A DNA stretch of 54,250 nt from Pseudomonas phage PP9W2: the sequence record OM141125.2. One strand, 5' to 3'. The notes beneath the pieces were generated by a model, which worked only from the letters and a program-made list of their open reading frames with translations, was not told where the DNA came from and did not search any database. Both the position numbers and the translations under genes were made by a program. Shown here in pieces: positions 2,272-27,395 of the stretch (position 1 is its first letter; every line of letters starts with the position of its first letter).

Positions 2272-3568
2272 GAGTCTCGGAAAAGTCCTGAGCAGTGCTA
2301 CGTCTGCGCCCAGGTCTTCATTGTTCGGTTGGGGGGATAAGACCATCCGCCTGACAGATGGCGCGTTCTGGTCGCAGTTCTTGGGGCGAGAGTCCTCGAG
2401 CGGGAAGAAGGTCACTGTCGACAAGGCAATGAAGCTGTCCGCGGTATGGGCTTGCGTTCGCTTGATCTCTACTTCTGTCGCCGGCCTGCCGCTTGGAGTG
2501 TACGAGCGGAAAGCGGACGGGAGCAGAGTCGATGCTCGGTCGTTCCCGCTCTACGATGTTGTTCACAACAGCCCCAATGACGACATGACGGCCTTCCAGT
2601 TCTGGCAAGCCATGGTCGCATCGATGTTGCTTTGGGGGAACGCATACGCGGAGATTCGTCGTGCTGCCGGTAGGCCTGCTGCGCTGGACTTCCTGCTTCC
2701 ATCGAGGGTCGACCTGGAGTGTGATGACAACGGTCGGCTGAAGTACTTCTACACGCCAAAGAAGGGTGCCCGTAGAGAGATCGAGCGCACAAACATGCTG
2801 CACATCCCGGCGTTCACGCTGGATGGCAGAGTCGGTCTCTCTGCCATCCGGTATGGCGTCGATGTCTTCGGTTCGGTCATGTCGGCGGAGGATGCCGCCA
2901 ACGGCACATTCAAGAACGGACTGCTCCCCACGGTCGCATTCAAGGTCGACCGCACTCTCCAGCCTGCGCAGAGGGAGGAGTTCAGGGAGTACGTGAAGTC
3001 CATATCTGGCGCTATGAACGCTGGGAGGTCCCCTGTACTGGAGCAGGGTATTACCCCTGAGACTATCGGCATCAACCCAGTCGATGCTCAGTTGCTGGAG
3101 ACGCGAGAGCATGGAGTGATCGAGATTTGCAGATGGTTCGGGGTTCCGCCCTGGATGATTGGTCAGACCGACAAAGGGAGTAACTGGGGGACCGGGCTTG
3201 AACAGCAGATGCTCGCGTTCCTGACATTCTCGATCAGTTCGATCACCAATCAGATTCAGCAGTGCGTCAACAAGCGGCTGCTAACTGCGCCCGAGCGGAT
3301 TCGCTATTACGCCGAGTTTTCCCTTGAGGGATTCCTGAAAGCTGATAGCGCGGGTCGCGCTGCCTGGTACAGCACCATGGCGCAAAACGGATTCATGACT
3401 CGCAATGAAGGTCGCCGGAAAGAGAACCTTCCAGAGCTTCCCGGCGGCGACATCCTGACTGTGCAATCCAACCTTGTCCCCCTCGACCAACTCGGTCAAT
3501 CCAATGAGAGCCAGGCGGTTCGCGCCGCACTCATGAACTGGCTCAGCCAGCCAGAACCACAGGAGTAA
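2264..3568 (+). CDS. portal protein (HK97 family)
   Basis: 434 aa, GTG start with AAGGGG RBS; sits between TerL and the prohead protease. Confidence 0.85.
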   Translation: MSKSLGKVLSSATSAPRSSLFGWGDKTIRLTDGAFWSQFLGRESSSGKKVTVDKAMKLSAVWACVRLISTSVAGLPLGVYERKADGSRVDARSFPLYDVVHNSPNDDMTAFQFWQAMVASMLLWGNAYAEIRRAAGRPAALDFLLPSRVDLECDDNGRLKYFYTPKKGARREIERTNMLHIPAFTLDGRVGLSAIRYGVDVFGSVMSAEDAANGTFKNGLLPTVAFKVDRTLQPAQREEFREYVKSISGAMNAGRSPVLEQGITPETIGINPVDAQLLETREHGVIEICRWFGVPPWMIGQTDKGSNWGTGLEQQMLAFLTFSISSITNQIQQCVNKRLLTAPERIRYYAEFSLEGFLKADSAGRAAWYSTMAQNGFMTRNEGRRKENLPELPGGDILTVQSNLVPLDQLGQSNESQAVRAALMNWLSQPEPQE

Positions 3569-3571
3569 CCC

Positions 3572-4462
3572 ATGACTCTGCGAAATCTTCCGGCAGCGCC
3601 GGAGGCTCGCCCGCGCTCGGGCGTCCAGTGCGACCTGGCGCCAAAAGCGCTGGATGCATGGCGTCCTGAGCTTCGCGCCGCGTCCGGCGATAACCCCGAC
3701 ACCACCATCACCATCTACGAGCCCATCGGTTATGACTGGTGGACCGGCGAGGGCGTAACCGCGAAACGCATTGCCGGTGCGCTGCGCGCCATCGGCGGCG
3801 ATGTCGATGTGACCGTGAATATCAATAGTCCGGGCGGCGACGTGTTCGAGGGGCTGGCGATTTACAACCTGCTGCGCGAGCACAAGGGCAAGGTCTCGGT
3901 GAACATCATCGGATTGGCTGCCTCTGCCGCCTCCTTTATCGCCATGGCAGGGGATGAAATCCGCATTGGCCGCGCCGCCTTCCTGATGATCCACAACGCC
4001 TGGCTGATCGCCATGGGCAATCGGAACGACCTGCGTGAGATCGCCGACTGGCTGGAGCCATTCGACATGACGCTGGCTGACATTTACGCGCAGCGCACCG
4101 GCATCGATATCGACGACATCGTGAAGCAGATGGACGCCGAGACCTGGATCGGCGGGCGCGAAGCCGTCGACAAGGGGTGGGCAGATGCCTTCCTGGAATC
4201 CGACGAGATCTCCAGTGCGCCGAGCAACCGCAGTGAAGCCATCTTGGCCAAGCGCCGGATGGATGCCGCTCTGGCTCGCAGCGGCATGCCGCGAAGCCAG
4301 CGCAATGAACTCATCAATGACTTCAAGACCAGCATGCTTGGCGCTGCTGGCGGGGGTGGTGACACCCCGACCGATATGCCTGGCGCTGTCGCTCCTGACC
4401 TCTCCGCTGCACTACGGGCAGCACAAGACATCACTAAATTCCTCCAAGGAGAATCGCAATGA
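3572..4462 (+). CDS. ClpP-like prohead protease (S14)
   Basis: NINSPGGDVFEGLAIYN ClpP signature with Ser/His catalytic context; AGGAG RBS. Confidence 0.85.
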   Translation: MTLRNLPAAPEARPRSGVQCDLAPKALDAWRPELRAASGDNPDTTITIYEPIGYDWWTGEGVTAKRIAGALRAIGGDVDVTVNINSPGGDVFEGLAIYNLLREHKGKVSVNIIGLAASAASFIAMAGDEIRIGRAAFLMIHNAWLIAMGNRNDLREIADWLEPFDMTLADIYAQRTGIDIDDIVKQMDAETWIGGREAVDKGWADAFLESDEISSAPSNRSEAILAKRRMDAALARSGMPRSQRNELINDFKTSMLGAAGGGGDTPTDMPGAVAPDLSAALRAAQDITKFLQGESQ

Positions 4463-5646
4463 GCGACTTCGAGAAACAAATCGGCGAACTGAACACCAGC
4501 CTCAAGCAGGTCGGCGATCAGATCAAGGCCCAGGCCGAACAGGTCAACACCCAAATCGCCAACTTCGGCGAGATGAACAAGGAAACCCGAGCCAAGGTCG
4601 ACGAACTGCTGACCGCTCAGGGCGAACTGCAAGCACGGCTGAGCGCCGCAGAACAAGCCATGCTGGCCAACGAGAAGCGTGACGGCGGCGAGGAAGCACC
4701 GAAGACCGCCGGCCAAATGGTCGCAGAGAGCCTGAAAGAGCAGGGTGTAACCAGCTCCCTGCGCGGTTCGCATCGCGTATCCATGCCGCGCTCGGCCATC
4801 ACCTCCATCGACAGCTCTGGCGGTGCCCTGGTTGCTCCTGATCGTCGCCCCGGTGTCGTTGCCGCTCCGCAGCGTCGACTGACCATCCGCGACCTGGTTG
4901 CGCCGGGCACCACTGAATCGAACTCCGTCGAGTACGTTCGCGAGACCGGCTTCGTCAACAATGCCGCTCCTGTTTCGGAAGGCACCCAGAAGCCGTACTC
5001 GGACCTGACCTTCGAGCTGGAAAACGCGCCGGTTCGCACCATCGCCCACTTGTTCAAGGCAAGTCGCCAGATCCTGGACGACGCATCGGCCTTGCAGAGC
5101 TACATCGATGCGCGCGCTCGTTACGGCCTGATGTTGGTCGAAGAAGGTCAACTGCTCTACGGAAACGGAACCGGTGCCAATCTGCACGGCATCATTCCGC
5201 AGGCACAGGCCTACGCTCCGCCGAGCGGCGTAGTGGTGACTGCCGAGCAGCGAATCGACCGCATCCGCCTGGCGATCCTTCAGGCGCAACTGGCCGAGTT
5301 CCCGGCCAGCGGTATCGTGCTCAACCCCATCGACTGGGCGCTGATCGAGCTGACCAAGGACGCCGAGAACCGCTACATCATCGGCAGCCCGCAGAACGGC
5401 ACCACTCCGACCCTCTGGCGTCTGCCGGTGGTGGAAACCCAGGCCATCACTCAGGACGAGTTCTTGACCGGGGCATTCTCGCTCGGCGCCCAGATCTTCG
5501 ACCGCATGGATATCGAGGTTCTGGTCTCCACCGAGAACGACAAGGACTTCGAGAAAAACATGGTAACCATCCGCGCTGAAGAGCGACTGGCCTTCGCGGT
5601 CTATCGGCCTGAGGCGTTTGTCACTGGTTCGCTGACCGCCAGCTGA
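4459..5646 (+). CDS. major capsid protein (HK97 fold)
   Basis: 395 aa immediately after the protease; the N-terminal delta-like coiled coil is followed by a capsid domain. Confidence 0.85.
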   Translation: MSDFEKQIGELNTSLKQVGDQIKAQAEQVNTQIANFGEMNKETRAKVDELLTAQGELQARLSAAEQAMLANEKRDGGEEAPKTAGQMVAESLKEQGVTSSLRGSHRVSMPRSAITSIDSSGGALVAPDRRPGVVAAPQRRLTIRDLVAPGTTESNSVEYVRETGFVNNAAPVSEGTQKPYSDLTFELENAPVRTIAHLFKASRQILDDASALQSYIDARARYGLMLVEEGQLLYGNGTGANLHGIIPQAQAYAPPSGVVVTAEQRIDRIRLAILQAQLAEFPASGIVLNPIDWALIELTKDAENRYIIGSPQNGTTPTLWRLPVVETQAITQDEFLTGAFSLGAQIFDRMDIEVLVSTENDKDFEKNMVTIRAEERLAFAVYRPEAFVTGSLTAS

Positions 5647-7075: not shown

Positions 7076-7903
7076 TTGTTCATCCGCGGAATGCTTGGCC
7101 TTGGTGACAATATCTACGCCCGCGCGTTCGTGAAGAAGCACCTTGGAGCCTATCTCGAAACGCCGTGGCCCCAGCTCTATGCAGACATCGATGTGAAATG
7201 CGTGCGTCCGAGCACGCAGCTCCGCACGCAAGCGAAGAACGTCCAGCGCCCGGCGCAGTGGCATAAGCCATTCGGTGGCGGCCAGCTCCGAATCGCCTAC
7301 GGCCAGATGCCGATCATCCAGGGCTTGCGCCAAGCGTTCCGGTGCGAGCCCGGTGTGTTTGATCTGCCAGACTTCGGTCCATCACCGGTCGAAGGGCGCT
7401 ATGTCCTGGTTCGCCCGGCGACGGTTCGTGCTGAGTGGCGTGCAGACACGCGCAACCCACTTCCTGAGTACATCGCTAGCGCTGCCGCAGTGATGCGCCG
7501 CAGGGGCTGGAAAGTGGTTTCCGTGGCGGACTTGGAGCCGGGTAAGGAATGGGCGATCGATCCACTTCCTCCGGCAGACATCAAGTTCCATAAGGGTGAA
7601 CTGCCGGTTGAGAAATTACTTGCCCTTTTGCAATACGCCGACGCAGTGATTGGCGGCATTGGCTGGATCGTGCCGGCCGCCATCGCCGCAAAGCGGCCGG
7701 CCTGGATCATCTGTGGCGGGCAGGGCGGCTACAACTCGCCGGAACACATCACCGACAAATGCATGGACCTGTCCCGCATCACATTCGCGGTTCCCGACAG
7801 GTTCTGCCGCTGCACGTTGAAACAGCACAACTGTGACAAAAGGATCGCCGATCATGACGCACGCTTTGCCGCCTGGGCTGACCGACTGCCTGCTCTGGTC
7901 TGA
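7076..7903 (+). CDS. GT-B fold glycosyltransferase, family 9 (heptosyltransferase)-like
   Basis: TTG start after an AGGAGG RBS. N-terminal MLGLGDNIY resembles the GT9 RLSxLGD motif. C-terminal LLALLQYADAVIGGIGWIVPAAIAAKRPAWIICGG resembles the GT9 donor-binding segment. Confidence 0.45.
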   Translation: MFIRGMLGLGDNIYARAFVKKHLGAYLETPWPQLYADIDVKCVRPSTQLRTQAKNVQRPAQWHKPFGGGQLRIAYGQMPIIQGLRQAFRCEPGVFDLPDFGPSPVEGRYVLVRPATVRAEWRADTRNPLPEYIASAAAVMRRRGWKVVSVADLEPGKEWAIDPLPPADIKFHKGELPVEKLLALLQYADAVIGGIGWIVPAAIAAKRPAWIICGGQGGYNSPEHITDKCMDLSRITFAVPDRFCRCTLKQHNCDKRIADHDARFAAWADRLPALV

Positions 7904-8471
7904 AGAGCTTGGCATGGGCTTCCACCCGCGCCCGCCGATGGACTATAGCGGGCCGTATTTCGAGAAGTATCAGGTGCTTGACGCTACCCCGATGGGCGCC
8001 GCGCTGACCCAGGCCCGTATTGATCTGGTGCGCCGTCACTTTGCCGGCCAGGTGGTAGACATCGGTATCGGCGGAGGCCGTTTCGTCACCGAGTCCGGCG
8101 CTATGGGTTTCGACGTGAACCCGGAGGCGGTGGACTGGCTGAAGGCGCAGGAGCGCTACTACGACCCGTACCAGCACCACGCAGAAGCCGTGACCTGCTG
8201 GGACAGCCTGGAGCACATTCCCGAGCCGGAGAAGCTGCTCGACCACGTTGGCGAGTGGCTGTTCGTGTCCATGCCGATTTATAAGGATCAGGCTGACTGC
8301 CTGTCCTCCAAGCACTACAAGCCGGGTGAGCATATCTGGTACCACACGATGCACGGTTTGATCGGATGGTGCGAGCGTCAAGGTTTCGAATGTGTCGAGC
8401 TAAACGACCAGGAGTCGAAACTTGGCCGAGAAGGCATCACCAGCTTTGCGTTCCGGAGAGTCCATGGCTGA
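7854..8471 (+). CDS. class I SAM-dependent methyltransferase
   Basis: Motif I VVDIGIGGGRF, post-I acidic residue, and CWDSLEHIPEPEKLL / LFVSMP motifs; AAGGA RBS. Confidence 0.65.
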   Translation: MTHALPPGLTDCLLWSEELGMGFHPRPPMDYSGPYFEKYQVLDATPMGAALTQARIDLVRRHFAGQVVDIGIGGGRFVTESGAMGFDVNPEAVDWLKAQERYYDPYQHHAEAVTCWDSLEHIPEPEKLLDHVGEWLFVSMPIYKDQADCLSSKHYKPGEHIWYHTMHGLIGWCERQGFECVELNDQESKLGREGITSFAFRRVHG

Positions 8472-9317: not shown

Positions 9318-9345
9318 AGCCCGCCACCGCGCGGGTTTTTATTGC
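9318..9345 (+). terminator. rho-independent terminator
   Basis: GC hairpin (agcccgccaccgcgcggg) followed by TTTTTATT. Confidence 0.5.
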
Positions 9346-9365
9346 CTGCTACAGGAGAAGACGTT

Positions 9366-9869
9366 ATGTCGATGCTTACCCAAGGAACTCAGGTCTATGC
9401 CCTTGTTCCGCCCCGCTCTGGATCTGGTCCTTTTACGGTGATGGAGATCGAGTGCGCAACCTCCTTCAACCCCGGAGGAAACCCGGCGGATCAGATCGAG
9501 GACCCGTGCTTGAGCGAGACCTCGCGCAAATACAAGAAGGGCATGCGTACCCCTGGTCAAGCCACTCTCGGACTGAATGCAGATCCGCGGAATGCGAGCC
9601 ATGTTCGGCTCTTTCAGCTCTCAGAGGATGACAGTGACCAGGATATTGTCTTTGCTGTCGGCTGGTCAGATGGTGTCGGTGTAAGCCCGTCCGCAGACCA
9701 AGACAGCAATGGAGACTGGGACTTTGATCTTCCGCCGACGCGTACATGGTTCGTTTTCCGTGGTTACGTCAGCGACTTCCCGTTCGATTTTGCAGCCAAC
9801 ACCCTGGTCGCCACCCAGGCCACGATCCAGCGCTCTGGCGCAGGGCAGTGGATTCCGAAAACCGCGTAA
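9366..9869 (+). CDS. major tail (tube) protein
   Basis: AGGAGAAG RBS; about 167 aa immediately upstream of the G/G-T chaperone pair. Confidence 0.6.
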
Positions 9870-9878
9870 GGAGCAGAC

Positions 9879-10229
9879 ATGAAACTAGCCGATCTGGTGG
9901 CCGCTGGCGCGGTCCTGGGCGATGGACTGGTGAAGAAAAGCATCACCTGGACGCACACTCCGCCGGGTAAGAAAAAGGCGGTCACGGACACCTTCGATGT
10001 ATTCATCAAGCGCAGCAGTTTCGGCGCCATGGAACGCCTGTTCGCCCAAGACGACGACAAGAAGAGCCAGAATGCGCGTTACCTGGCTGAGAGCGTCAGA
10101 CTGGGCGAGGGTGGCGAGGAAGAGATTCCCTACGAAACTGCGTTCAACCTCGACCCTGCGTTGGGCTTCCTGCTCTTGCAGGCTGTCGCGGAGGTAAATG
10201 GCACGGCGCCGGGTGACGAAAAAAACTGA
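9879..10229 (+). CDS. tail assembly chaperone (gpG-like)
   Basis: Acidic 116 aa protein between the major tail and tape measure genes; ends at the slippery site. Confidence 0.6.
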   Translation: MKLADLVAAGAVLGDGLVKKSITWTHTPPGKKKAVTDTFDVFIKRSSFGAMERLFAQDDDKKSQNARYLAESVRLGEGGEEEIPYETAFNLDPALGFLLLQAVAEVNGTAPGDEKN

Positions 10230-10525
10230 CGCCCGCCGATGAGGTTTGGCATGAACTCGTGCTGAACGGCATCGGCGGTTGCACCATTCGCGAGGCGAAG
10301 GAGCGCATCGACTACGATGAGTACAGGGCGTGGGTTGCCTACCTGAAAAAGCGTGGCTCCCTCAACGGGAGCTATCGCCTGGAGTGGGTGCTGGCTCAGT
10401 TAGCCGCGATTCAGGCCAAGGTAGGGGGTGTGAAGTGCGAACCCGACGACTTCCGCCCCCATGTTCGGGGGCCGGTAGAGCCGGTGGGTATCTCGCTCGA
10501 GCAAGCCATGGCCGCATGGGTTTGA
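9879..10525 (+). CDS. tail assembly chaperone G-T fusion by programmed -1 frameshift
   Basis: Heptamer A_AAA_AAC at 10220-10226 lies in the zero-frame register, 1 codon before the G stop. The -1 frame continues as KKLTPADEVW... into the 10259..10525 ORF (gpT-like). Confidence 0.55.
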
Positions 10526-10563
10526 CCTGGCAAGGATGCCGGGTTCCTGTGCTGGCGCTCCGG

Positions 10564-10593
10564 TTGGCGAGGATGCTGGCTCCGTGCTAGATT
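10564..10593 (+). promoter_or_regulatory. candidate sigma70 promoter of cargo cassette
   Basis: TTGGCG-N18-TAGATT about 30 nt upstream of the lipoprotein ATG, at the start of a lower-GC island. Confidence 0.3.
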
Positions 10594-10622
10594 CCGGGCG
10601 ATCACCACCGGGAGGGTTGTTA

Positions 10623-10952
10623 ATGCGTAATATATTGGTTGCTTCAATAGTTCTAACTGCTGTTTTAAGTGGATGCGCCTCTAGTGGAAAAGAGATTACG
10701 CAGGAGCAGGTGGATAGAATTGTGCAGGGACAAACAACTCAGGATCAGTTGATTTCGATTTTTGGCAAGCCCATGGCGGAACAATACAATTCAGATGGGA
10801 GCCGTGTACTTACCTGGGGGTATGCCTATGTTGGGTTTATGGGGGCTGGCACAGAAACCCAGGGGCTTTCGGTAATTCTTGGTCCAGATGGAAAGGTTAC
10901 AGGGTATAGCAGGGCAGGTTCCTCTCCATCCCCTGCAAGATTTGGTCGGTAA
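10623..10952 (+). CDS. BamE/SmpA-OmlA-like lipoprotein
   Basis: Signal peptide plus lipobox LSGC. ITQEQVDRIVQGQTTQDQLISIFGKP...LTWGYAY matches the BamE pattern. GGAGGG RBS. AT-richer than its surroundings. Confidence 0.6.
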   Translation: MRNILVASIVLTAVLSGCASSGKEITQEQVDRIVQGQTTQDQLISIFGKPMAEQYNSDGSRVLTWGYAYVGFMGAGTETQGLSVILGPDGKVTGYSRAGSSPSPARFGR

Positions 10953-10988
10953 GCTGTTTTAGTTTCTGATTTAATCGGCAGGTAAGAT

Positions 10989-11300
10989 ATGTTTGAGGAA
11001 GTTTATAATAATTGGGTTTCTATTTTGTTTTTCGGGGTTTGGTTGGCGTCAATCTCTGCGTATCTGGCAGCATCTCGCAGAAGAAGTATAGCCCTATGGT
11101 TTGTCTTTGGTTTCTTCGCTCCGATAATCGCCATACCTCTTATATTTATTCTAGGGGAAGATAAGCAAGCGTCTGAACGCTCGTCTCGTCAGGCCGCAGT
11201 GGATGTCGGTATATCGAATGGTTTTAAGAAATGCCCATATTGCGCGGAAGCCGTCAGAGAGGAGGCTAAGCTATGCCGACATTGTCGGTCTGAGATATGA
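10989..11300 (+). CDS. 2-TM membrane protein with C-terminal zinc ribbon
   Basis: Two hydrophobic helices and a CPYC...CRHC ribbon; AGGTAAG RBS; low GC. Confidence 0.55.
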   Translation: MFEEVYNNWVSILFFGVWLASISAYLAASRRRSIALWFVFGFFAPIIAIPLIFILGEDKQASERSSRQAAVDVGISNGFKKCPYCAEAVREEAKLCRHCRSEI

Positions 11301-11398
11301 GATATGGGCATGTCTGTACTGGCATCGGCCAAACTAAAATTGGCCGAAAATCATATTCAATGGGGATGATTATCTGAAGAAGTAGAAAATCCCTATGC

Positions 11399-11424
11399 AA
11401 GCCGCCTTCGGGCGGTTTTTTATT
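11399..11424 (+). terminator. rho-independent terminator
   Basis: gccgccttcgggcgg followed by TTTTTTATT, just upstream of the tape measure RBS. Confidence 0.5.
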
Positions 11425-11441
11425 GTCCGGAGAAAAGCTAA

Positions 11442-14400
11442 ATGGCCTCTCGCTCCCTTGGTGTGCTGACGCTCGACCTCATTGCGCGCATTGGGGGATT
11501 TCAGCAGAACATGAATCGTGCAGCCCAGGATACTGCGCGCAGTATGGGGCGGATCGAGCAAAGCACGCAGCGGGCGAGTTCGACGGCAGTTAGCGCTATC
11601 AAGTCTATTGGTGTTGCGGCGGCTGCTTATCTGAGCGCCCGAGAACTTGTTGGATATTCGCAAGCCTGGGTCTCTATTGAGAACCGCATCAAGCAGGTCA
11701 GCGAAAGTCAGGCTCAGTTCAGTCAGTCGATGGATGCAGTGTATTCCGTCGCTCAGAATGCGCAGTCATCTTTGGAGGGCACTGCGGAGCTGTACCAGAG
11801 GATTGCCGCTTCAACTGGCGACCTCGGGGTAAATCAACAGCAAGTTGTCCAGGTGACCCAGAACATCAGCAAGGCCATGTCGGCCAGTGGTGTTTCCGCT
11901 GCCGCTGCGGAAGGTGCGCTGGTGCAACTCGGACAGGCCTTTGCCTCTGGCGTGCTCCGAGGACAGGAGTTGAACTCGGTACTCGAGCAGGCTCCGGGCT
12001 TGGCCCAGGCCGTCGCAAACGGTCTCGGGGTTGCGGTTGGAGACCTCCGGAAGCTTGGCGAACAGGGCAAGCTGACCTCCAAGCAGGTCTTCGAGGCGAT
12101 TCTGTCTCAAACCCGAGCTATTGATGACCAGTTTGCGCGCGCCCAGACTACCATCGCTGGCGCGTTTCAAGTTCTGGAGAACAGCGCGACCAAAGCGATC
12201 GGCAGCCTAGATAGCACTCTCGGGGTGTCCAAGGCTTTTACGGAAGCCATGGTTTCCCTGTCGAAGTCGCTTGACTCTACGGGCGTACAGGCCTTCGTCC
12301 AGGTCCTGAATACTGGGCTGTATCTGGCGATCGGACGTACTGCTGGCGCTCTGGTAAGCGCGACGGCTGCCAAGATCGCAGACGCCAAGGCGACCCAGGA
12401 GCAGACCTATGCTGCGTCGGTTGCTGCGGCCGGAGAGGTGCGACGCGCCCAGGCGGTCAAGGCCGAGGCCGTTGCTGAGTTAGACCGAGCCCGCCAAGCC
12501 GTGGCTTCTGCTCGTGCACAGGTGGCTGCTGATCGGGAGCGGCAAGCCTCCGAAATCTCTCGTTTGCGGGCCGTACAGGCATCGCTTGTGGCTGAGCGCG
12601 AACTCGAAGGTCAGCGGCTGAAGGCCCAAATCACAGAGATTGGCCGACAGCAGTCTGTCGCTCGAATGGCCGAGTTACGGCTATCCGAAACGGCCATCAT
12701 CAAGCAGCTTCAGGCTGCCGAGGCGCAATTGACGGCCACCTCCGTGGCGGGCTCGCAGGCGGTTACCGCAGCCCTTGCTCAGCGAGTGTCTGCAACCGAA
12801 GCGCTTTCTGCGGCGAACTTGCAACTTACCGCAACTCAAACTGCCTCGACGGCCGCAATGGGCCGATGGTTCGCGGCCAGCACAGCTTTGGGGGCAGGGT
12901 TAAATGCCCTGAGAACAGCAGGCGCGGGGATTCTCAGGATTGCTGCTGGATGGCCGGGGCTGATCATCTCGCTGGGGATGGTAGCCTTGTCCTTCGTCGA
13001 TTTCGGGGGCAAGGCCGAGAGTAATGCTGGTCGTGCGGCCAATGCTTTCGAAGACGCCTCCACCCGCATCCGTCAGGCCGCTCGGACGATGATTCCGGAG
13101 GATCTTTCCGGGCTCAGCTATGAGCAGTTGAAGCAGCAGTTGGCGGGCCTTCAGGATCAATTGAAGGATGCCGAGGCGCTTCAGGAGCGGTTCCAGAAGG
13201 GCGTTGACGACAATACCGACGTTCCGTTTGGTCCTTCGCTGGACGAGGCAAAGGAGAAAGCAGAGTCCTTGCGCCTTGCCATCCAGAAGACACAGCGAGA
13301 ACTGGACGGTGCAAGGTTCGCTTCGGATAAGGCTGGCGCGAGCTATCTGGATAATTTGCAGAAGCAGAGCGTTGTCGCCGGCAAACTGACCGAGGTAGAG
13401 AAGCTCCGTGCCCAGGTCAACGCTGGCATCCTGAAGCTAAGTCCTGACGATGAAAAGCGCGCCCTGGCCTATGCCGCAGCCGTGGACAAGGCGAATGCCT
13501 CGACCAAGTCCCAGAAGGACCTGTTGAAGGACTCTGCGAAGGGGCTGAAGCAGGCTGAGGAGCGGTATCGGGACCTCAAGAAGGAGATAGACCCTACCGC
13601 GACTGCGACGGACGAGTACAGGAAGAACATCGAAGCCCTCAACATCCTGAAGGGCAGGGGAAAGATCACGAGCCAGGAGTATGCGAAGGGAATCGACTGG
13701 GCGGCCAAGTCGTTCAACTCCGCAGTGGACGCGGCTAATCCGTTCGTGAAGCGGCTCAGAGAGATCAAGTCCGCGATGGACGAGAGCTTGGGCAATCTCA
13801 AGCTCGAAGGGCAACGCGAAATCCTCGGGATGGGGATGAGCGATAGCCAGAGGGGGCTGTTCGACAAGCTGAACGAGGAGAATGACCGTTACGCCAAGGC
13901 CCGCAGGGATCTTGCCGACCGCTACGCAGACAGATCGGTCGGGATGAGCGACGACGAGTACCAGCAGGAACTTCAGGCTCAGCAGAAACACCATGAGCAA
14001 ATGCTGGAGCAGTTGCAGGCAAACTACGATGCTCGACTTGAGGCCCAGGGGGACTGGGTGTCTGGAGCCCGCTCCGCATGGGAAACCTACGTGGAGGATG
14101 CACAGAATTACTCGAAGCAGGCCTCTGACTTCGTGTCTGGCGCACTTGGCGATGCTACCAACGGCTTGGGCGATGCAATCACCGATATCGTCACGCGGAC
14201 CAAGAGCCTCGGAGATGCGTTCGGTGACATGGCTGCGGACCTGGCTAAGTCGGTCATCAAGGCCCTGGCTGACATGGCCGCCCAGTGGCTTGTCTACCAG
14301 GCGGTGCAGTTGGTCGTAGGGAAGACGGCTCAATCGACTGCGGCAATCGGGCTGGTCGCCAATGCTCAGGCAACGGCGTTCCAGGCACAGCTAGCAGCTT

Positions 14401-14831
14401 TTGCCTCGACGGCTGCCATCCCGATTGTTGGCCCTGGCCTGGCTGCTGGTGCTGCTGCGGCTGCCGCCGCAGCTACCGCGCCAATGGTTGCTGGAGTTTC
14501 TTCGGCGGCCTTCGCGGGCATCGCGCACGGCGGCATCGACAACATCCCGAAGGAGAGTACCTGGCTGCTTGATGCTGGTGAGCGGGTGCTCAGTCCGAAT
14601 CAAAACAGGGACCTGACTGCTTTCCTCAGCAGGGAAGGCGGCGCGAGTGCTGGGGCTGGACAGGCGCCGTCGATCACTATCAACGCTCCGGTCACGGTTA
14701 ATGCCCAGCCCGGCATGAGCCAAGAGGAAGCTCGAATGCAGGGAGAGGCTGCCGGGCTGGCCTTGCGGGAGGAGGTCCGGGGCGTCATTCGGGAAGAGTT
14801 GGGGCAGAACGGTCTGCTTTGGAGGCGATAA
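11442..14831 (+). CDS. tail tape measure protein
   Basis: 1129 aa, Ala/Gln-rich and alpha-helical, with a C-terminal Gly/Ala hydrophobic region. Confidence 0.85.
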   Translation: MASRSLGVLTLDLIARIGGFQQNMNRAAQDTARSMGRIEQSTQRASSTAVSAIKSIGVAAAAYLSARELVGYSQAWVSIENRIKQVSESQAQFSQSMDAVYSVAQNAQSSLEGTAELYQRIAASTGDLGVNQQQVVQVTQNISKAMSASGVSAAAAEGALVQLGQAFASGVLRGQELNSVLEQAPGLAQAVANGLGVAVGDLRKLGEQGKLTSKQVFEAILSQTRAIDDQFARAQTTIAGAFQVLENSATKAIGSLDSTLGVSKAFTEAMVSLSKSLDSTGVQAFVQVLNTGLYLAIGRTAGALVSATAAKIADAKATQEQTYAASVAAAGEVRRAQAVKAEAVAELDRARQAVASARAQVAADRERQASEISRLRAVQASLVAERELEGQRLKAQITEIGRQQSVARMAELRLSETAIIKQLQAAEAQLTATSVAGSQAVTAALAQRVSATEALSAANLQLTATQTASTAAMGRWFAASTALGAGLNALRTAGAGILRIAAGWPGLIISLGMVALSFVDFGGKAESNAGRAANAFEDASTRIRQAARTMIPEDLSGLSYEQLKQQLAGLQDQLKDAEALQERFQKGVDDNTDVPFGPSLDEAKEKAESLRLAIQKTQRELDGARFASDKAGASYLDNLQKQSVVAGKLTEVEKLRAQVNAGILKLSPDDEKRALAYAAAVDKANASTKSQKDLLKDSAKGLKQAEERYRDLKKEIDPTATATDEYRKNIEALNILKGRGKITSQEYAKGIDWAAKSFNSAVDAANPFVKRLREIKSAMDESLGNLKLEGQREILGMGMSDSQRGLFDKLNEENDRYAKARRDLADRYADRSVGMSDDEYQQELQAQQKHHEQMLEQLQANYDARLEAQGDWVSGARSAWETYVEDAQNYSKQASDFVSGALGDATNGLGDAITDIVTRTKSLGDAFGDMAADLAKSVIKALADMAAQWLVYQAVQLVVGKTAQSTAAIGLVANAQATAFQAQLAAFASTAAIPIVGPGLAAGAAAAAAAATAPMVAGVSSAAFAGIAHGGIDNIPKESTWLLDAGERVLSPNQNRDLTAFLSREGGASAGAGQAPSITINAPVTVNAQPGMSQEEARMQGEAAGLALREEVRGVIREELGQNGLLWRR

Positions 14832-15179
14832 GTGGCTGAGACCTTTTCTTACTGTACCCGCCTTGGAGCTAGCGGCGAGATTGCCCAGCGCACCTGGCAG
14901 AACGACTTCGGGGATGGATACGTTCAGTCCGGCGGAACGGGGATCAACACCAGATCCGAGATCTGGGATGGAATGACGATCATCGGGCGCCTGGAGGCTG
15001 GTGATGATCTCCTGGGCGCCCGCGCCTTCCTGGACCGGCACGAGGGGTATAGGTCGTTCCTATGGACGCCCCCTGGCGGCGCACAGGGTCGATACCGGTG
15101 CAATGGATACAAGCTGAGGCCGTTGGGTGGAGGGCTGTACGAACTGAGTTTCACGTTCGTCCAAGTCTTCTACCCGTAG
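14832..15179 (+). CDS. minor tail protein (lambda gpM-like)
   Basis: 115 aa immediately after the tape measure gene; GTG start; gpM-like size and sequence. Confidence 0.6.
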   Translation: MAETFSYCTRLGASGEIAQRTWQNDFGDGYVQSGGTGINTRSEIWDGMTIIGRLEAGDDLLGARAFLDRHEGYRSFLWTPPGGAQGRYRCNGYKLRPLGGGLYELSFTFVQVFYP

Positions 15180-15216
15180 CAACCAACCATGAGCGGTTAT
15201 GCCGCGGGAGAGAGGA

Positions 15217-15375
15217 ATGAACACCCAAACTACCACCAAAGGTCAGGCTATTAAAAGCCAAGCTGTAGACTCGAAAGGAAATCCAGCTTGGCTTTTACGC
15301 TCTGACGGTCAAATCGTGATTTCGGCGCAGTTCGTAAAAGATAGCGCCGTGACCAAAGCTGTTATTCGCGGTTGA
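15217..15375 (+). CDS. small hypothetical protein (52 aa)
   Basis: MNTQTTTKGQAIKSQAVDSKGNPAWLLRSDGQIVISAQFVKDSAVTKAVIRG with a strong GGGAGAGAGG RBS; below the track cutoff. Confidence 0.3.
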   Translation: MNTQTTTKGQAIKSQAVDSKGNPAWLLRSDGQIVISAQFVKDSAVTKAVIRG

Positions 15376-15761
15376 TATTTGGGATATCAAGAGTGTAAGT
15401 TCTTGGTATCACTCCGTCCGGAAATACCTTTTGGAAAATCTCTAGCACGAAGTTATCTCCTACACCTTGCTGCCTGCATGCCAGTGAAGCTTTTCGGACG
15501 ATGTGTCTTTGTTGGCTGCAAGAATCTTCTGTCGAGTCAGGGTGCCTCTGATAAATTCAAGACAAAGCATAAATCTCGGAGCGAGTTGAATGAGCACTTT
15601 TGCTTGTGAGTCCAACATGAGGGAGCTCTCAATGAGCACAGGTCGGCCCATTGAGGAGCTAAAGCAGGTAGTCGTGACTGAGTTAATGGTCAAAGCCGCG
15701 ATGGATTATGTGCTCGGGTTATGGGATCGGGATGTCGACATTTTCCTGCTAGAGGATGTGT

Positions 15762-16379
15762 TCAGGATAATGGCAGTTCTTCAGCCTCGGCCTCTGGATA
15801 TTCCAAAATTGACGAGCGCACCTTCTCAATGAGCTTGTCGAACTTGGATAGCGATGCCGATTTAATTTCATCTGGAACACCGCATTCCAACAGCCCAGCA
15901 ATAATGCCGAGCAGGTAGTAAACCTGCATTAAGTCGAGCGCGATTTTTCTAAGTTCAAGCAACGTTAGCGTTTCTGAGTAGGGCGTTCCGTCACTGTTCC
16001 TCTTTGTTGGATGGTAGATAGGGGCCTCGTCCTTGCCCTCTGGTGATAACCCCCAGGCCCAATGGACGATCTTGTTTCTCTGCGCCGTCATCTTCTTGAA
16101 TGTGGACAGAGCGACATTCAGCCTTTCCGGTATGTCGATCGGTAACGGCGATGTTTCGAGAAGCTTTGTGACCGTTGCTGCTAATGAGGTCGAGCGGAGC
16201 CTTAATGATTCTACGACGACCGACTGGGTATCCGCTCTTAGTCCGCTTAGAAAACCGAATATCCGCATGAGCGGTTCATCGCACAGGCTGTGATTGACCA
16301 CGATCTGCCCGATTTCTGCCCGCATGGCAGAGTTTGGGCCCGCGTCGTATCTATAGTTTGTGGTTCTTGGGTCTTCCAT
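15762..16379 (-). CDS. HEPN-motif protein (Rx4H: AQRNKIVHWAW), candidate abortive-infection toxin
   Basis: 205 aa helical protein on the opposite strand, inside the M-L junction of the tail operon. GGAGG RBS before MEDPRTT. Local GC is about 48% against about 63% elsewhere. Confidence 0.5.
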   Translation of the reverse strand: MEDPRTTNYRYDAGPNSAMRAEIGQIVVNHSLCDEPLMRIFGFLSGLRADTQSVVVESLRLRSTSLAATVTKLLETSPLPIDIPERLNVALSTFKKMTAQRNKIVHWAWGLSPEGKDEAPIYHPTKRNSDGTPYSETLTLLELRKIALDLMQVYYLLGIIAGLLECGVPDEIKSASLSKFDKLIEKVRSSILEYPEAEAEELPLS

Positions 16380-16480
16380 TCCGCTTGCCTCCTCGGCCCC
16401 TGGTCTCATCCAAGCACGGGAAGCTACCGCCAGAGCAAACATGCTGCCACTGGCATTTCATCCACGCTGTACAACCTTCC

Positions 16481-24734: not shown

Positions 24735-25169
24735 ATGCGTACATCCCAACGAGGCATAGACCTCATCAAATCCTTCGAGGGCCTGCGCCTGTCCGCTTAC
24801 CAGGACTCGGTGGGTGTCTGGACCATTGGCTACGGCACCACGCGAGGCGTCACCCGCTACATGACGATCACCGTTGAGCAGGCCGAGCGGATGCTGTCGA
24901 ACGACCTTCGGCGCTTCGAGCCAGAGCTAGACAGGCTGGTGAAGGTGCCACTGAACCAGAACCAGTGGGATGCCCTGATGAGCTTCGTCTATAACCTGGG
25001 CGCAGCCAATCTTGCGTCGTCCACTCTGCTCAAGCTGCTGAACAAGGGTGACTACCAGGGAGCAGCGGACCAGTTCCCTCGCTGGGTGAATGCGGGTGGT
25101 AAGCGCTTGGACGGCCTGGTGAGGCGCCGAGCGGCGGAGCGTGCGCTGTTCCTGGAGCCGCTGTCGTGA
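24735..25169 (+). CDS. endolysin (GH24 lysozyme)
   Basis: GIDLIKSFEGLRLSAYQDSVGVWTIGYG with the catalytic Glu/Asp/Thr triad spacing of T4/lambda R-like lysozymes. Confidence 0.85.
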   Translation: MRTSQRGIDLIKSFEGLRLSAYQDSVGVWTIGYGTTRGVTRYMTITVEQAERMLSNDLRRFEPELDRLVKVPLNQNQWDALMSFVYNLGAANLASSTLLKLLNKGDYQGAADQFPRWVNAGGKRLDGLVRRRAAERALFLEPLS

Positions 25170-25534
25170 TCTCTTGGCGCTGGGCAACCATCGCGCTGGC
25201 CTGCCTGCTGCTGGTCGGCCTCGGCACCGCCGGCGGTGTCTGGCTCGGCGCGCGACACTACCGGCCGCAGTTGGATGCCGCGAGCGCGGATCTGGCTGCC
25301 TGCCGTGCCTCCCGGGGAGAGTTGGAGTCCGCAGTGGCAGAGCAGGTCCGGCAGGTTGCCGCGCTGCGCATGGCCGGCGAGCAGCGCGCCCGGGATGCCG
25401 CGCAGGCTGTGGAGCGGGGGCGGCAGCAGGCCGCGGAGCAGTATGCCGGAGCCCAACGCCTGCTGAGTCAGCGAACCGCCGGTGAGCAGTGTGCGGCCGC
25501 CGAGGCGGTCATCGATCAGGAGCTGGGTCTATGA
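25166..25534 (+). CDS. i-spanin (Rz-like)
   Basis: N-terminal TM helix followed by a periplasmic coiled coil; overlaps the endolysin stop. Confidence 0.6.
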   Translation: MISWRWATIALACLLLVGLGTAGGVWLGARHYRPQLDAASADLAACRASRGELESAVAEQVRQVAALRMAGEQRARDAAQAVERGRQQAAEQYAGAQRLLSQRTAGEQCAAAEAVIDQELGL

Positions 25535-25791
25535 GGGTGGTGCTGATGCTGATGATTGTCGCGCTGGTGGGATGCGCCGGCCGGCAGGAAGCCGAGCCGC
25601 GCACGGTGCGCGTAGAAGTTCCGGTGGCGGTGCCGTGCCGAGCGCCCGCGGTCGAGGTGCCGGCCTGGGCAGCGGCTGGGCTGCGGAAAGACGACGACCT
25701 ACAGACCAAGGTCCGTGCGCTGCTGGCCGAGCGGTTGCAGCGGATCGGGTATGAGGCGCAACTGCTTGCAGCCAACAGGGCATGCCAGTAG
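25531..25791 (+). CDS. o-spanin lipoprotein (Rz1-like)
   Basis: MRVVLMLMIVALVGCAG lipobox; Pro-rich; starts within the end of Rz. Confidence 0.55.
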   Translation: MRVVLMLMIVALVGCAGRQEAEPRTVRVEVPVAVPCRAPAVEVPAWAAAGLRKDDDLQTKVRALLAERLQRIGYEAQLLAANRACQ

Positions 25792-26285: not shown

Positions 26286-27395
26286 TCAAGTGTTTACGAG
26301 CTTCAGCGGCCCTCCATGTAGATACGCTGGATTATCAACGTGAACAGAACGTGAAATGCGACTTTCACGGACCTGATCAAGAACCCCTACAGCATCCCTT
26401 ACCCTGGCTGGAGCAAGATGGGCATATCGTTCAGTCATCGCGACTGTCGAGTGTCCGAGCAGATCCCGAACATCCGCCAACGGAACGCCGGCGCTGACCA
26501 GCCATGCCGCGCAGGTGTGGCGCAGGTCGTGAATCGTAAAGTCCGCAATCTTCGCTGCCTGGCAGGCCTGCTTGAAGCCGGCCGAAAGCGATACCACTCG
26601 ATCACCGTTAGCGCGCGCAAAGACCCAGGGGCATTCCGGGCTGGTCTCGGACCTGAATGCCATTCGTCGCTTTAGTGCTGCCATCGCCCCTTCGTTGATC
26701 GGGATGCTCCGGCGCTTGCCTGCCTTAGTGTGGGATGCCTCCAAGTAGATCAGTCGATTGGCGAAATCCACTCTGCGCCACTCCAGGCCAAGCATTTCCT
26801 CCCGCCGGCATCCGGTGTTTACCGCTAGGCGGATGAAATCCTCTAGCATCGGGCCAAACTTCTGGACGCGCGCGGCGCGGCACAGGGCCTCGACCTCCGC
26901 CCTGGTCAGCCAACGATCACGCCCCTCGGCCTCGCGCATCTTCCGCCCCTTCACCGGGTTAGGAAGGGCCCACTCCAGTTCTGTGTTGCAGTGGTTGATC
27001 GCCGCGGACAGTGCGGCGAGTTCTCGGTTGATGGTTGCCGGGGATGCGCCGGCATCCAACCGATGCGCTCCATATCCCCGGATGTCCTGGCCCCCTAGAT
27101 CGTTGACCACGCGTCCGGCAAAATACTCGCGCAGCGGCTTTATGCGGTGCACGGTCGTTTCGTAGCTGCGCTGATGCTGGCGAGCGTGCTGCAGGTACGG
27201 AATGATCACCTCCTCAAAGGTCCTGGGCGGATTCACGCCCATTTCCTTTTCCTTCCACGCTTTCGCGCGCTCCTGTTGCTCTAGTGCTTTCGCCGCCGAG
27301 TAGTCGGCAGTTCCAGAAGAGCGTCTAACAAGCTTTCCTGTTGCTGATTTGAAAGAGATCCACCAGTAGGCGGAGTCGTTTCTCTTGTACGGCAT
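26286..27395 (-). CDS. int: tyrosine integrase
   Basis: MPYKRNDSAYWWISF N-terminus and HDLRHTCAAWL...ERYAHL catalytic box; abuts the tRNA fragment. Confidence 0.9.
   Translation of the reverse strand: MPYKRNDSAYWWISFKSATGKLVRRSSGTADYSAAKALEQQERAKAWKEKEMGVNPPRTFEEVIIPYLQHARQHQRSYETTVHRIKPLREYFAGRVVNDLGGQDIRGYGAHRLDAGASPATINRELAALSAAINHCNTELEWALPNPVKGRKMREAEGRDRWLTRAEVEALCRAARVQKFGPMLEDFIRLAVNTGCRREEMLGLEWRRVDFANRLIYLEASHTKAGKRRSIPINEGAMAALKRRMAFRSETSPECPWVFARANGDRVVSLSAGFKQACQAAKIADFTIHDLRHTCAAWLVSAGVPLADVRDLLGHSTVAMTERYAHLAPARVRDAVGVLDQVRESRISRSVHVDNPAYLHGGPLKLVNT

Follow-up and report, generated by a model that had tools for sequence, protein, structure and literature searches.

A moron-like two-gene cassette with its own predicted promoter between the chaperone and tape measure genes of Pseudomonas phage PP9W2, and its possible role in superinfection exclusion

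In the tail operon of Pseudomonas phage PP9W2 (sequence record OM141125.2; the whole stretch of 54,250 nucleotides was analysed and is referred to here as the window), two small genes, which we call gene A and gene B, lie between the genes for the tail assembly chaperone, G/G-T, and for the tape measure protein (TMP). The window is that of a D3-like temperate siphophage of Pseudomonas aeruginosa, and its prophage setting includes an integrase gene on the minus strand (26286–27395). A first-pass annotation, made from the sequence alone, had described the locus as a self-contained cassette consisting of a promoter, a lipoprotein gene, a gene for a membrane protein and a terminator, and we were indeed able to locate the promoter motif, both genes and the terminator. 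The features of the locus and its immediate flanks are the following:

9879–10229, plus strand: tail assembly chaperone G (Pfam Phage_TAC_13, E = 1.9e-20)
10220–10226, plus strand: slippery heptamer A AAA AAC, read from the sequence, for the −1 frameshift that makes G-T
10259–10525, plus strand: T portion of chaperone G-T, read in the −1 frame with respect to G, last backbone gene 5' of the cassette (Phage_tail_T, E = 6.1e-8, above the gathering score)
10528–10549 and 10565–10586, plus strand: imperfect 22-nt direct repeat that straddles the left junction (repeat search, 77% identity, 37-nt spacing)
10559–11423, plus strand: variable cassette (moron), delimited by comparison with phage PACT201, which has common flanks and different cargo, and by the drop in GC content
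10564–10569, plus strand: hexamer TTGGCG, earlier proposed as −35 element (four of six matches to TTGACA), absent at the equivalent position in the related loci L007, L008, L062 and L063
10585–10593, plus strand: extended −10 element TGCTAGATT, predicted transcript start about 7 nt downstream
10610–10616, plus strand: Shine-Dalgarno sequence GGGAGGG of gene A, 6 nt before the ATG; GGGAGGG also occurs 3' of the −10 motif in L007 and L008
10623–10952, plus strand: gene A, a 109-aa preprolipoprotein with signal peptide, lipobox LSGC (Cys18) and a BamE/BLIP/OsmE-type alpha-alpha-beta fold
10762–10790, plus strand: promoter-like TTGGCA-17-TACAAT inside gene A (10 of 12 matches in the scan), considered as a possible internal promoter for gene B
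10989–11300, plus strand: gene B, 103 aa, with transmembrane (TM) helices at about residues 12–28 and 39–55, the basic loop SRRRS and, at the C-terminus, a C4 zinc ribbon (C82, C85, C96, C99), from hydropathy and charge analysis
11399–11424, plus strand: intrinsic terminator from a terminator scan, with an 8-bp stem (5 GC; 11399–11418), loop TTCG and a following T-run (−12.8 kcal/mol)
11429–11434, plus strand: Shine-Dalgarno sequence GGAGAA of the TMP gene
11442–14831, plus strand: TMP gene, 1129 aa (phrog_339, E = 1.9e-187)

The 905-nt region of the first-pass annotation (10536–11440) is 100% identical in phages phita81A, 5371 and 5399 and at least 99% identical in D14Q, D14C and U7 as well as in a 1.5-kb fragment, F_ET2439sp/ET602, and both genes are present at 98–100% identity in 20 IMG/VR prophage contigs. 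Its base composition sets it apart from its surroundings. In 200-nt windows, GC content is 0.44–0.49 over approximately 10600–11400 and 0.58–0.65 on either side, which bears out the AT-richer island of the first-pass annotation; by gene, the values are 0.476 for gene A, 0.452 for gene B and 0.604 for both G-T and the TMP gene. D3, the group's type phage, has no cassette, and its T and TMP genes are just 50 nt apart. Phage PACT201 (L004) is identical to the window through position 10558 on the left and again from about 11424 on the right, and carries unrelated cargo in between (L004 2800–3300), namely small hydrophobic open reading frames (ORFs), a CKHC...CPSC zinc-ribbon ORF, an extended −10 element of the form TGGTATAAT and its own terminator; the PACT201 record contains frameshifts and ambiguous bases. 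The first copy of the 22-nt direct repeat is part of the backbone common to PACT201, the second runs into the −10 element, and the repeat may be a recombination scar or a boundary sequence. PseuP_224 encodes a 273-aa lipoprotein with lipobox VSGC at the T–TMP junction (L005 2988–3809). Finally, HK97 and Salmonella phage FSL SP-016 hardly differ at the ends of their T genes, and their TMPs share 55% identity over the whole length and about 90% at the N-terminus; in the slot between T and TMP, HK97 carries gp15, a member of the YebO family, and SP-016 a gene B homolog. This combination of near-identical T ends and related TMPs with different cargo shows that gene B and gp15 are unrelated alternative cargos of one and the same junction.

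HK97 gene 15 is the element for which the term moron was coined (PMC3594210; Juhala 2000 and Cumby 2012, reviewed there), and the design and location of the PP9W2 cassette are already known, as they are those of this original moron (PMC3594210). The slot between the G/G-T chaperone and the tape measure gene is identical, and in both cases a promoter, a gene for a small envelope protein and a terminator directly 5' of the TMP gene make up the element (in the HK97 record, the 62-aa gp15 is followed by a terminator 12 nt 5' of the TMP gene), GC content is below that of the flanks and close relatives lack it. Both gp15 and gene B are small proteins of the inner membrane that stem from bacterial families of wide distribution. 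The two proteins nevertheless do not share any sequence relationship, as gp15 belongs to YebO (Pfam E = 1.2e-8) and gene B encodes two TM helices and a zinc ribbon, and homology between them was therefore rejected. A further difference is that HK97 carries one gene in the slot and PP9W2 two. Three hallmarks of a moron can be read from the comparisons: the element is present in some phages and absent from syntenic relatives (D3, PACT201, PseuP_224, HK97/SP-016), its base composition differs from that of the flanks (0.45–0.48 versus 0.60, and likewise in 23 of 23 gene B cassettes) and, at the level of sequence, it has its own promoter and terminator. We consider it very probable that the locus is a two-gene moron with its own promoter, built of independent cargo genes. 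The comparisons support a horizontally acquired, self-contained expression unit within the tail operon and speak against a set of conserved virion genes, an outcome that would have undermined the first-pass annotation and that is contradicted by D3, which lacks the cassette, and by PACT201 and PseuP_224, which carry other cargo.

The promoter had originally been proposed as a sigma70 promoter of the form TTGGCG-N18-TAGATT. Over positions 10564–10593 this pair of hexamers agrees with the consensus at eight of 12 positions and was missing from the output of the consensus scan. On the plus strand of the 54-kb window, 18 sites reach at least eight of 12 matches, and the one at TGCTAGATT is the only one with a TG extension. 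The −35 region is not conserved across related cassettes, whereas the extended −10 element is, so that the −10 half of the proposal stands, as an extended −10 element, and the −35 half has to be abandoned. The pattern TG.TA[AG]A[TG]T is located 29–35 nt 5' of the start codon in all 12 high-GC gene B cassettes from IMG/VR; in the 309 kb made up of these 12 loci plus the window, L007 and L008, searched on both strands, it occurs 16 times, and 14 of these occurrences are at the cassette position. The distance from the motif to the first start codon is about 30–40 nt across all 14 cassettes even though the cargo differs. The leader GTGCTAGATTCC...GGGAGGG recurs 5' of the gene B-only cassette of L008, and TGGTAGAGTCC...GGGAGGG recurs 5' of the gene A-only cassette of L007. 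Enterobacterial cassettes have a conserved GTGACA-17-TAGGAT in place of the extended −10 motif. Together, the comparison constitutes good evidence for an extended −10 promoter that is predicted to be active, without being proof of activity. The promoter-like sequence inside gene A (10762–10790) is probably a chance match in AT-rich coding DNA; the corresponding stretch is degraded in the gene A-only locus L007.

The terminator had been described as a clean intrinsic one right before the ribosome binding site of the tape measure gene. The hairpin is real, but it is not specific to the cassette. Its folding energy has a z-score of −1.48 relative to shuffled sequences, and its support comes from the T-run and from positional conservation rather than from energy alone. 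A hairpin with T-run is found between the gene B stop codon and the TMP start in 20 of the 23 gene B cassettes, and, with differing stem sequences, 5' of the TMP gene in D3 (L006, about 5167–5195), HK97 (L057, 399–423), PACT201 (L004, about 3275–3300), PseuP_224, L007, L130 and L147. In every related tail module examined, including that of the cassette-less D3, it lies directly 5' of the tape measure ribosome binding site. As D3 has the hairpin without the cassette, the terminator is not diagnostic of the cassette and belongs to the junction in general. The TMP gene and all distal tail genes lie beyond it, so late transcription would have to read through the hairpin. The hairpin at the TMP junction thus resembles a conserved junction feature.

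For gene A, an upstream ATG at 10536 was rejected as the start in favour of ATG 10623, which sits six bases after GGGAGGG. The protein belongs to phrog_3135, a family of phage SmpA/OmlA-like lipoproteins, which it matches over its full length (residues 1–105, E = 1.6e-34), and homologs are found in many phages and prophages at 30–75% identity. An AlphaFold model based on six sequences has a confident core (pLDDT about 89 at residues 30–70 and 80–100) with a BamE-type alpha-alpha-beta-beta-beta fold on a lipoprotein anchor. The Pfam BamE profile (PF04355) scores 21.9 bits versus a gathering score of 23.2 and is matched at positions 1–47 of 71 only, and a search of NCBIfam gave no match to BamE, 13 bits for OsmE with a cut-off of 65, and otherwise matches at the level of the signal peptide. 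Of the earlier assignment as a BamE/SmpA-OmlA-like lipoprotein with lipobox LSGC, lipobox and fold can be maintained, while family membership cannot. Sequence identity to the BamE/SmpA-OmlA/OsmE/BLIP family is 13–21%, and, unlike these proteins, gene A is phage-borne in accessory slots and has no link to the BAM complex, a context that argues against a BamE-like housekeeping role.

Sorting of lipoproteins in P. aeruginosa depends on the residues following the lipidated cysteine, with Lys+3/Ser+4 causing retention in the inner membrane. In gene A, the cysteine is followed by Ala-Ser-Ser, and the protein is therefore predicted to be anchored in the outer membrane and to face the periplasm. Relatives of gene A lie alone directly 5' of the TMP gene in L007, L130, L147 and L152. 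In IMG/VR, a locus search based on a five-sequence alignment returned 11 loci directly after co-oriented cI-type repressors with helix-turn-helix and S24 domains, 10 after integrases and four before TMP genes, and deposited phages with gene A relatives in lysogeny slots include Escherichia coli phage PhiR26_1 (cI, then the lipoprotein), Salmonella phage S107, the P. aeruginosa phages YMC11/07/P54 and P52, Lodos and D14L. Because relatives of gene A directly follow cI-type repressors or integrases in the same orientation, expression of the cassette in the lysogen receives indirect support.

Gene B was confirmed as a 103-aa protein with two TM helices and a CPYC...CRHC ribbon; its charged tail of 48 aa ends with CPYC-x10-CRHC. 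It is a member of phrog_8436 (E = 2.5e-20), with which it has in common the succession of TM1, basic loop, TM2, linker and CP[YF]CAE...C[KR][HY]C, and it matches Zn_ribbon_3 at E = 4.8e-5, below the gathering score. The homolog in L008 is 64% identical and that in FSL SP-016 34% (BLASTP 1e-17). Alignments of the family reveal as invariant the four cysteines, an arginine in the loop and a tryptophan and a glycine in helix 2. NCBIfam yielded just a zinc-ribbon match to TcaA, and a Pfam search at E values up to 10 detected neither Imm_superinfect nor Sie nor another named membrane family for the TM hairpin. An AlphaFold2 (AF2) model contains helices at residues 2–28 and 34–72 and has a low pLDDT of 63.7. 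In every member of the family the loop between the helices contains two or three Lys/Arg residues and no acidic residue, the N-terminus has no Lys/Arg except for one in L008, and the net charge of the 15 residues following helix 2 ranges from neutral to acidic. By the positive-inside rule, this charge pattern predicts that gene B forms an inner-membrane hairpin with a cytoplasmic basic loop and a periplasmic zinc ribbon.

At least 454 IMG/VR loci contain relatives of gene B; among the best 80, 67 loci other than those of the window type correspond to 37 distinct sequences. In 23 of these 37 viral homologs, an ORF of 700–1176 aa follows within 28–62 nt, and all 10 such ORFs that were tested are tape measure proteins of several Pfam types, the upstream genes being T and G. 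The GC content of the gene B cassette is lower than that of the adjacent TMP gene in all 23 cases, with a mean difference of −0.11. The gene B architecture is present in many phyla when one reference genome per species is considered, and six of 53 full-length matches, all from Enterobacterales, are located 5' of a TMP-sized ORF. Between the window and L008, gene B is 64% identical and TMP only 22%, which demonstrates transfer from one tail module to another. Gene B is thus a small membrane protein of broad distribution that has repeatedly been captured by prophages, much as gp15 derives from the widespread bacterial family YebO (PMC3594210).

Two further settings of gene B relatives emerged from the survey. 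Longer relatives of 120–270 aa with C-terminal extensions reside inside myovirus-like baseplate and tail operons away from the TMP gene (Klebsiella phage ST15-VIM1phi2.1, L056 3501–3881; L066–L068, L079, L087, L100, L114 and L128), so siphophages are not alone in having tail operons with such insertions. Furthermore, in at least seven genomes from Gammaproteobacteria, Campylobacterales and Nitrospirae (L156, L157, L158, L161, L163, L164 and L165, at about 3690–4310 in most of them), translational coupling links a gene B homolog to the gene upstream of it, which encodes a signal-anchored protein of about 104 aa, phrog_37309, without a Pfam match; in L161 the two genes directly follow an S24 cI-like repressor gene. 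The combination of phrog_37309 and gene B is an uncharacterised two-gene prophage unit.

Given these properties, we propose the following sequence of events. Transcription would start at the extended −10 sigma-70 promoter TGCTAGATT (10585–10593), genes A and B would be co-transcribed, as no terminator is present in the 36-nt gap between them, and the transcript would stop at the hairpin at 11399–11418, so that both proteins could be made in the repressed state of the prophage, with the tape measure gene and the tail genes beyond it remaining silent. In the lytic cycle, late transcription would have to pass this hairpin. Produced by the prophage, the two proteins would stop superinfecting phages at the stage of adsorption or of DNA entry and so guard the lysogen. 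Gene B may act in a manner similar to HK97 gp15 or P22 SieA and disturb the inner-membrane channel formed by the incoming tape measure and tail tip, and gene A may act like Cor, Llp or Ltp and bind a receptor or a tail component crossing the periplasm via its BamE/BLIP-type protein-binding fold. Gene B would thus probably act at inner-membrane penetration and gene A at the receptor or in the periplasm. The combined reading of the cassette as a moron with its own promoter that encodes envelope proteins for superinfection exclusion is the one we favour with moderate confidence; taken by itself, exclusion at entry as the function of both proteins comes close to an even chance without quite reaching it.

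The assignment to exclusion is based on the slot, the predicted envelope localisation and the precedents set by gp15 in the same slot, by the lipoproteins Ltp and Llp and by P22 SieA (PMC3594210, PMC3952083, PMC9586334, PMC10883804). HK97 gp15 is a prophage product that inserts into the inner membrane and prevents the entry of DNA in a manner dependent on the tail of the infecting phage (PMC3594210); for gp15 exclusion has been shown, for genes A and B it is proposed. P22 SieA and T4 Imm, small inner-membrane proteins encoded by a prophage or phage, act after adsorption and keep the DNA from entering (PMC10883804). Gene B resembles them as a small inner-membrane hairpin protein encoded in a prophage accessory slot, and differs from them in the absence of detectable homology and in the C-terminal C4 zinc ribbon that is specific to its family. 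Ltp from Streptococcus phage TP-J34 has the tape measure protein as its target, and its gene is part of the lysogeny module (PMC3952083); T5 Llp acts from the periplasmic side, where it binds the receptor FhuA (PMC9586334). Together with Cor from phi80, N15 and HK022, these are small phage lipoproteins that oppose incoming phages in the envelope, as proposed for gene A, the relatives of which also occur in lysogeny modules. No sequence match was found between gene A and any of them; the PHROG match to Cor (E = 0.36) covers the signal peptide only. Gene A, a putative exclusion protein, has a BamE/BLIP-like fold, unlike Llp and Ltp.

Several observations weigh against this interpretation. The hairpin may be a feature of the backbone, the promoter is without a recognisable −35 element and is supported by comparison only, and the topology of gene B is a prediction from the charge rule alone, accompanied by a low-confidence AF2 model. 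Stress lipoproteins (OsmE) and immunity proteins of type VI secretion systems (T6SS) have a BamE/BLIP fold as well, and since homologs of gene B are commonly encoded away from tail operons, its family may serve a general purpose in the membrane. A literature search on these phages and families returned no findings on expression or phenotype for either gene. A homology search against characterised exclusion proteins and defence models was equally negative: PADLOC gave no match for gene A and, for gene B, a zinc-ribbon match to a homing endonuclease only, and neither the comparison with YebO/gp15 nor that with Cor changed this picture.

A more far-reaching version of the exclusion hypothesis is tentative, and we regard it as rather less likely than not to be correct. 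It states that phrog_8436 is a widespread, unrecognised class of tape-measure-linked DNA-entry blockers and that the T–TMP junction is a reusable expression socket. The inner-membrane hairpin may present a C4 zinc or disulfide knuckle to the periplasm and thereby intercept the tape measure or the tail-tip complex, and adjacency to the TMP gene may let the blocker travel with the TMP type that it recognises. The socket, consisting of extended −10 element, Shine-Dalgarno sequence, cargo and terminator, may be loaded with interchangeable blockers, sometimes with gene A or phrog_37309 as a partner.

Lysogenic conversion unrelated to phage defence is the strongest competitor of superinfection exclusion, even if it is unlikely. 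According to this explanation, the lipoprotein, perhaps together with gene B, would alter the physiology of the envelope or the interaction with the host, for example through OsmE-like stress tolerance, serum resistance or adhesion as with lambda Bor and Lom, enzyme inhibition, or immunity to a toxin active in the periplasm such as a T6SS effector or a bacteriocin, which fits the fold neighbours of gene A and the wide distribution of gene B. It poorly explains the linkage to the tape measure, as gene B is enriched directly 5' of TMP genes (23 of 37 distinct homologs) and takes the place of gp15, a proven exclusion gene, and it does not sit well with the presence of gene A in a rexAB-like slot after cI.

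Still less probable is an obligate two-component system in which gene A as outer-membrane lipoprotein and gene B as its inner-membrane partner span the periplasm. The first-pass annotation had presented the two genes as a pair, and they are indeed separated by only 36 nt without a hairpin in the gap, co-transcribed as far as can be predicted and always found together in their own lineage. The coupling of gene B homologs to the periplasm-exposed phrog_37309 described above, once after a cI-like repressor, also suggests that gene B may often use a partner. Against a dedicated pair stands that each gene occurs alone in the same promoter/terminator socket, gene A in the four loci listed above and gene B in L008, in SP-016 and 5' of the TMP gene in 23 of the 37 distinct IMG/VR homologs. 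Profile searches and an inspection of co-occurrence in other prophages, suggested in the first-pass annotation as a check, matched both proteins to PHROG families and found the tandem of A and B solely in the near-identical (98–100%) P. aeruginosa lineage of the window. Genes A and B hence appear to be cargo genes that move independently of each other and are stacked in a single expression socket.

We consider it highly improbable that the genes serve the phage's own lytic cycle, be it by preventing re-adsorption to debris (the second role of T5 Llp), by helping TMP or the membrane at assembly or injection, or by spanin- or holin-like lysis. The cassette is located inside the late operon and would thus also be transcribed late, T5 Llp provides a precedent (PMC9586334), and a lipoprotein combined with an inner-membrane protein is superficially reminiscent of o- and i-spanins. 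The identity of gene B also tracks that of TMP (r = 0.92), a correlation driven mainly by clusters of closely related phages and for this reason discounted as a sign of co-evolution; the divergent identities of gene B and TMP between the window and L008 speak against it as well. D3 and HK97 lack the genes, which are hence dispensable. A two-component spanin of the Rz/Rz1 type does not agree with gene A, which is a globular BamE-type protein and not a proline-rich o-spanin, nor with gene B, which has two TM helices, a 48-aa tail and no periplasmic coiled coil, nor with the position of the cassette in the tail operon. Moreover, the window has a separate lysis cassette with spanin-like genes at 24735–25791:

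24735–25169: endolysin gene of the lysis cassette
25166–25534: i-spanin-like ORF with N-terminal TM helix and coiled coil (phrog_3774, listed as of unknown function)
within 25489–25791: o-spanin-like lipoprotein ORF with lipobox LVGC, overlapping the i-spanin-like ORF

The idea that there is no functional unit at all, only chance ORFs with a chance promoter and terminator in an AT-rich spacer, has next to no probability and is refuted by the homology data, i.e., many diverged homologs with conserved motifs, the PHROG matches, the confident fold of gene A and the positional conservation of promoter motif and terminator, although GenBank annotation could be taken to favour it, with both genes uncalled in phita81A, 5371 and 5399 and an antisense ORF or a 39-aa fragment called instead of the intact 103-aa ORF of gene B in D14Q and U7 (records compared: PQ738200, PQ758388, PQ758389, BK061590 and PP003919; L001, L002). 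In practical terms, several deposited genomes thus leave genes A and B unannotated or mis-annotated.

An element of this kind, in this slot and with this logic, is textbook knowledge; the cargo families are uncharacterised. PHROG lists both phrog_3135 and phrog_8436 as of unknown function, PADLOC contains no model for them, and a literature search found no paper on either family. As far as the literature shows, three aspects are new, namely the recurrence of phrog_8436 in the gp15 slot across distant siphophages, the presence in this slot of a conserved socket of extended −10 element and terminator, and the stacking of two such cargos in a P. aeruginosa lineage. Morons in tail operons are one of the chief ways in which prophages confer phage resistance and alter the bacterial surface, and HK97 gp15 is the only characterised occupant of the slot between chaperone and tape measure genes. 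In a clinically common P. aeruginosa prophage lineage, this slot holds two uncharacterised envelope proteins, and the large gene B family turns up there again and again in siphophages of Pseudomonas-like and enterobacterial type, accompanied each time by a promoter and a terminator of its own. If a block of phage entry were indeed the function, the susceptibility of lysogenic clinical strains to therapeutic phages would be affected, and the proteins would offer a way into the question of how the tape measure gets across the envelope.

Other parts of the late region also contain features that deserve mention. One of them precedes a further tail gene upstream of the cassette:

9342–9869: major tail tube gene, lambda-type (Phage_TTP_11, E = 1.6e-65)

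Just 5' of this gene, and within the late operon, lies a terminator-like hairpin, AGCCCGC...GCGGGTT, with a T-run (9318–9337). Amid the head–tail joining region, two genes at 7076–8471 correspond in related records to a family 9 glycosyltransferase (heptosyltransferase) and an S-adenosylmethionine (SAM)-dependent methyltransferase, a content that is unusual for a block of virion morphogenesis genes. A second accessory island of low GC content occupies 15180–16450 within the tail operon, flanked by the minor tail gene M (14832–15179) and an L-like gene. It comprises plus-strand ORFs at 15199–15375 and 15590–15832 (80 aa, phrog_25599) and a minus-strand ORF of 226 aa at 15762–16442 (phrog_26374), and the sole other plus-strand copy of the extended −10 element in the window, TGATAAATT at 15549, is situated 41 nt 5' of the 80-aa ORF.

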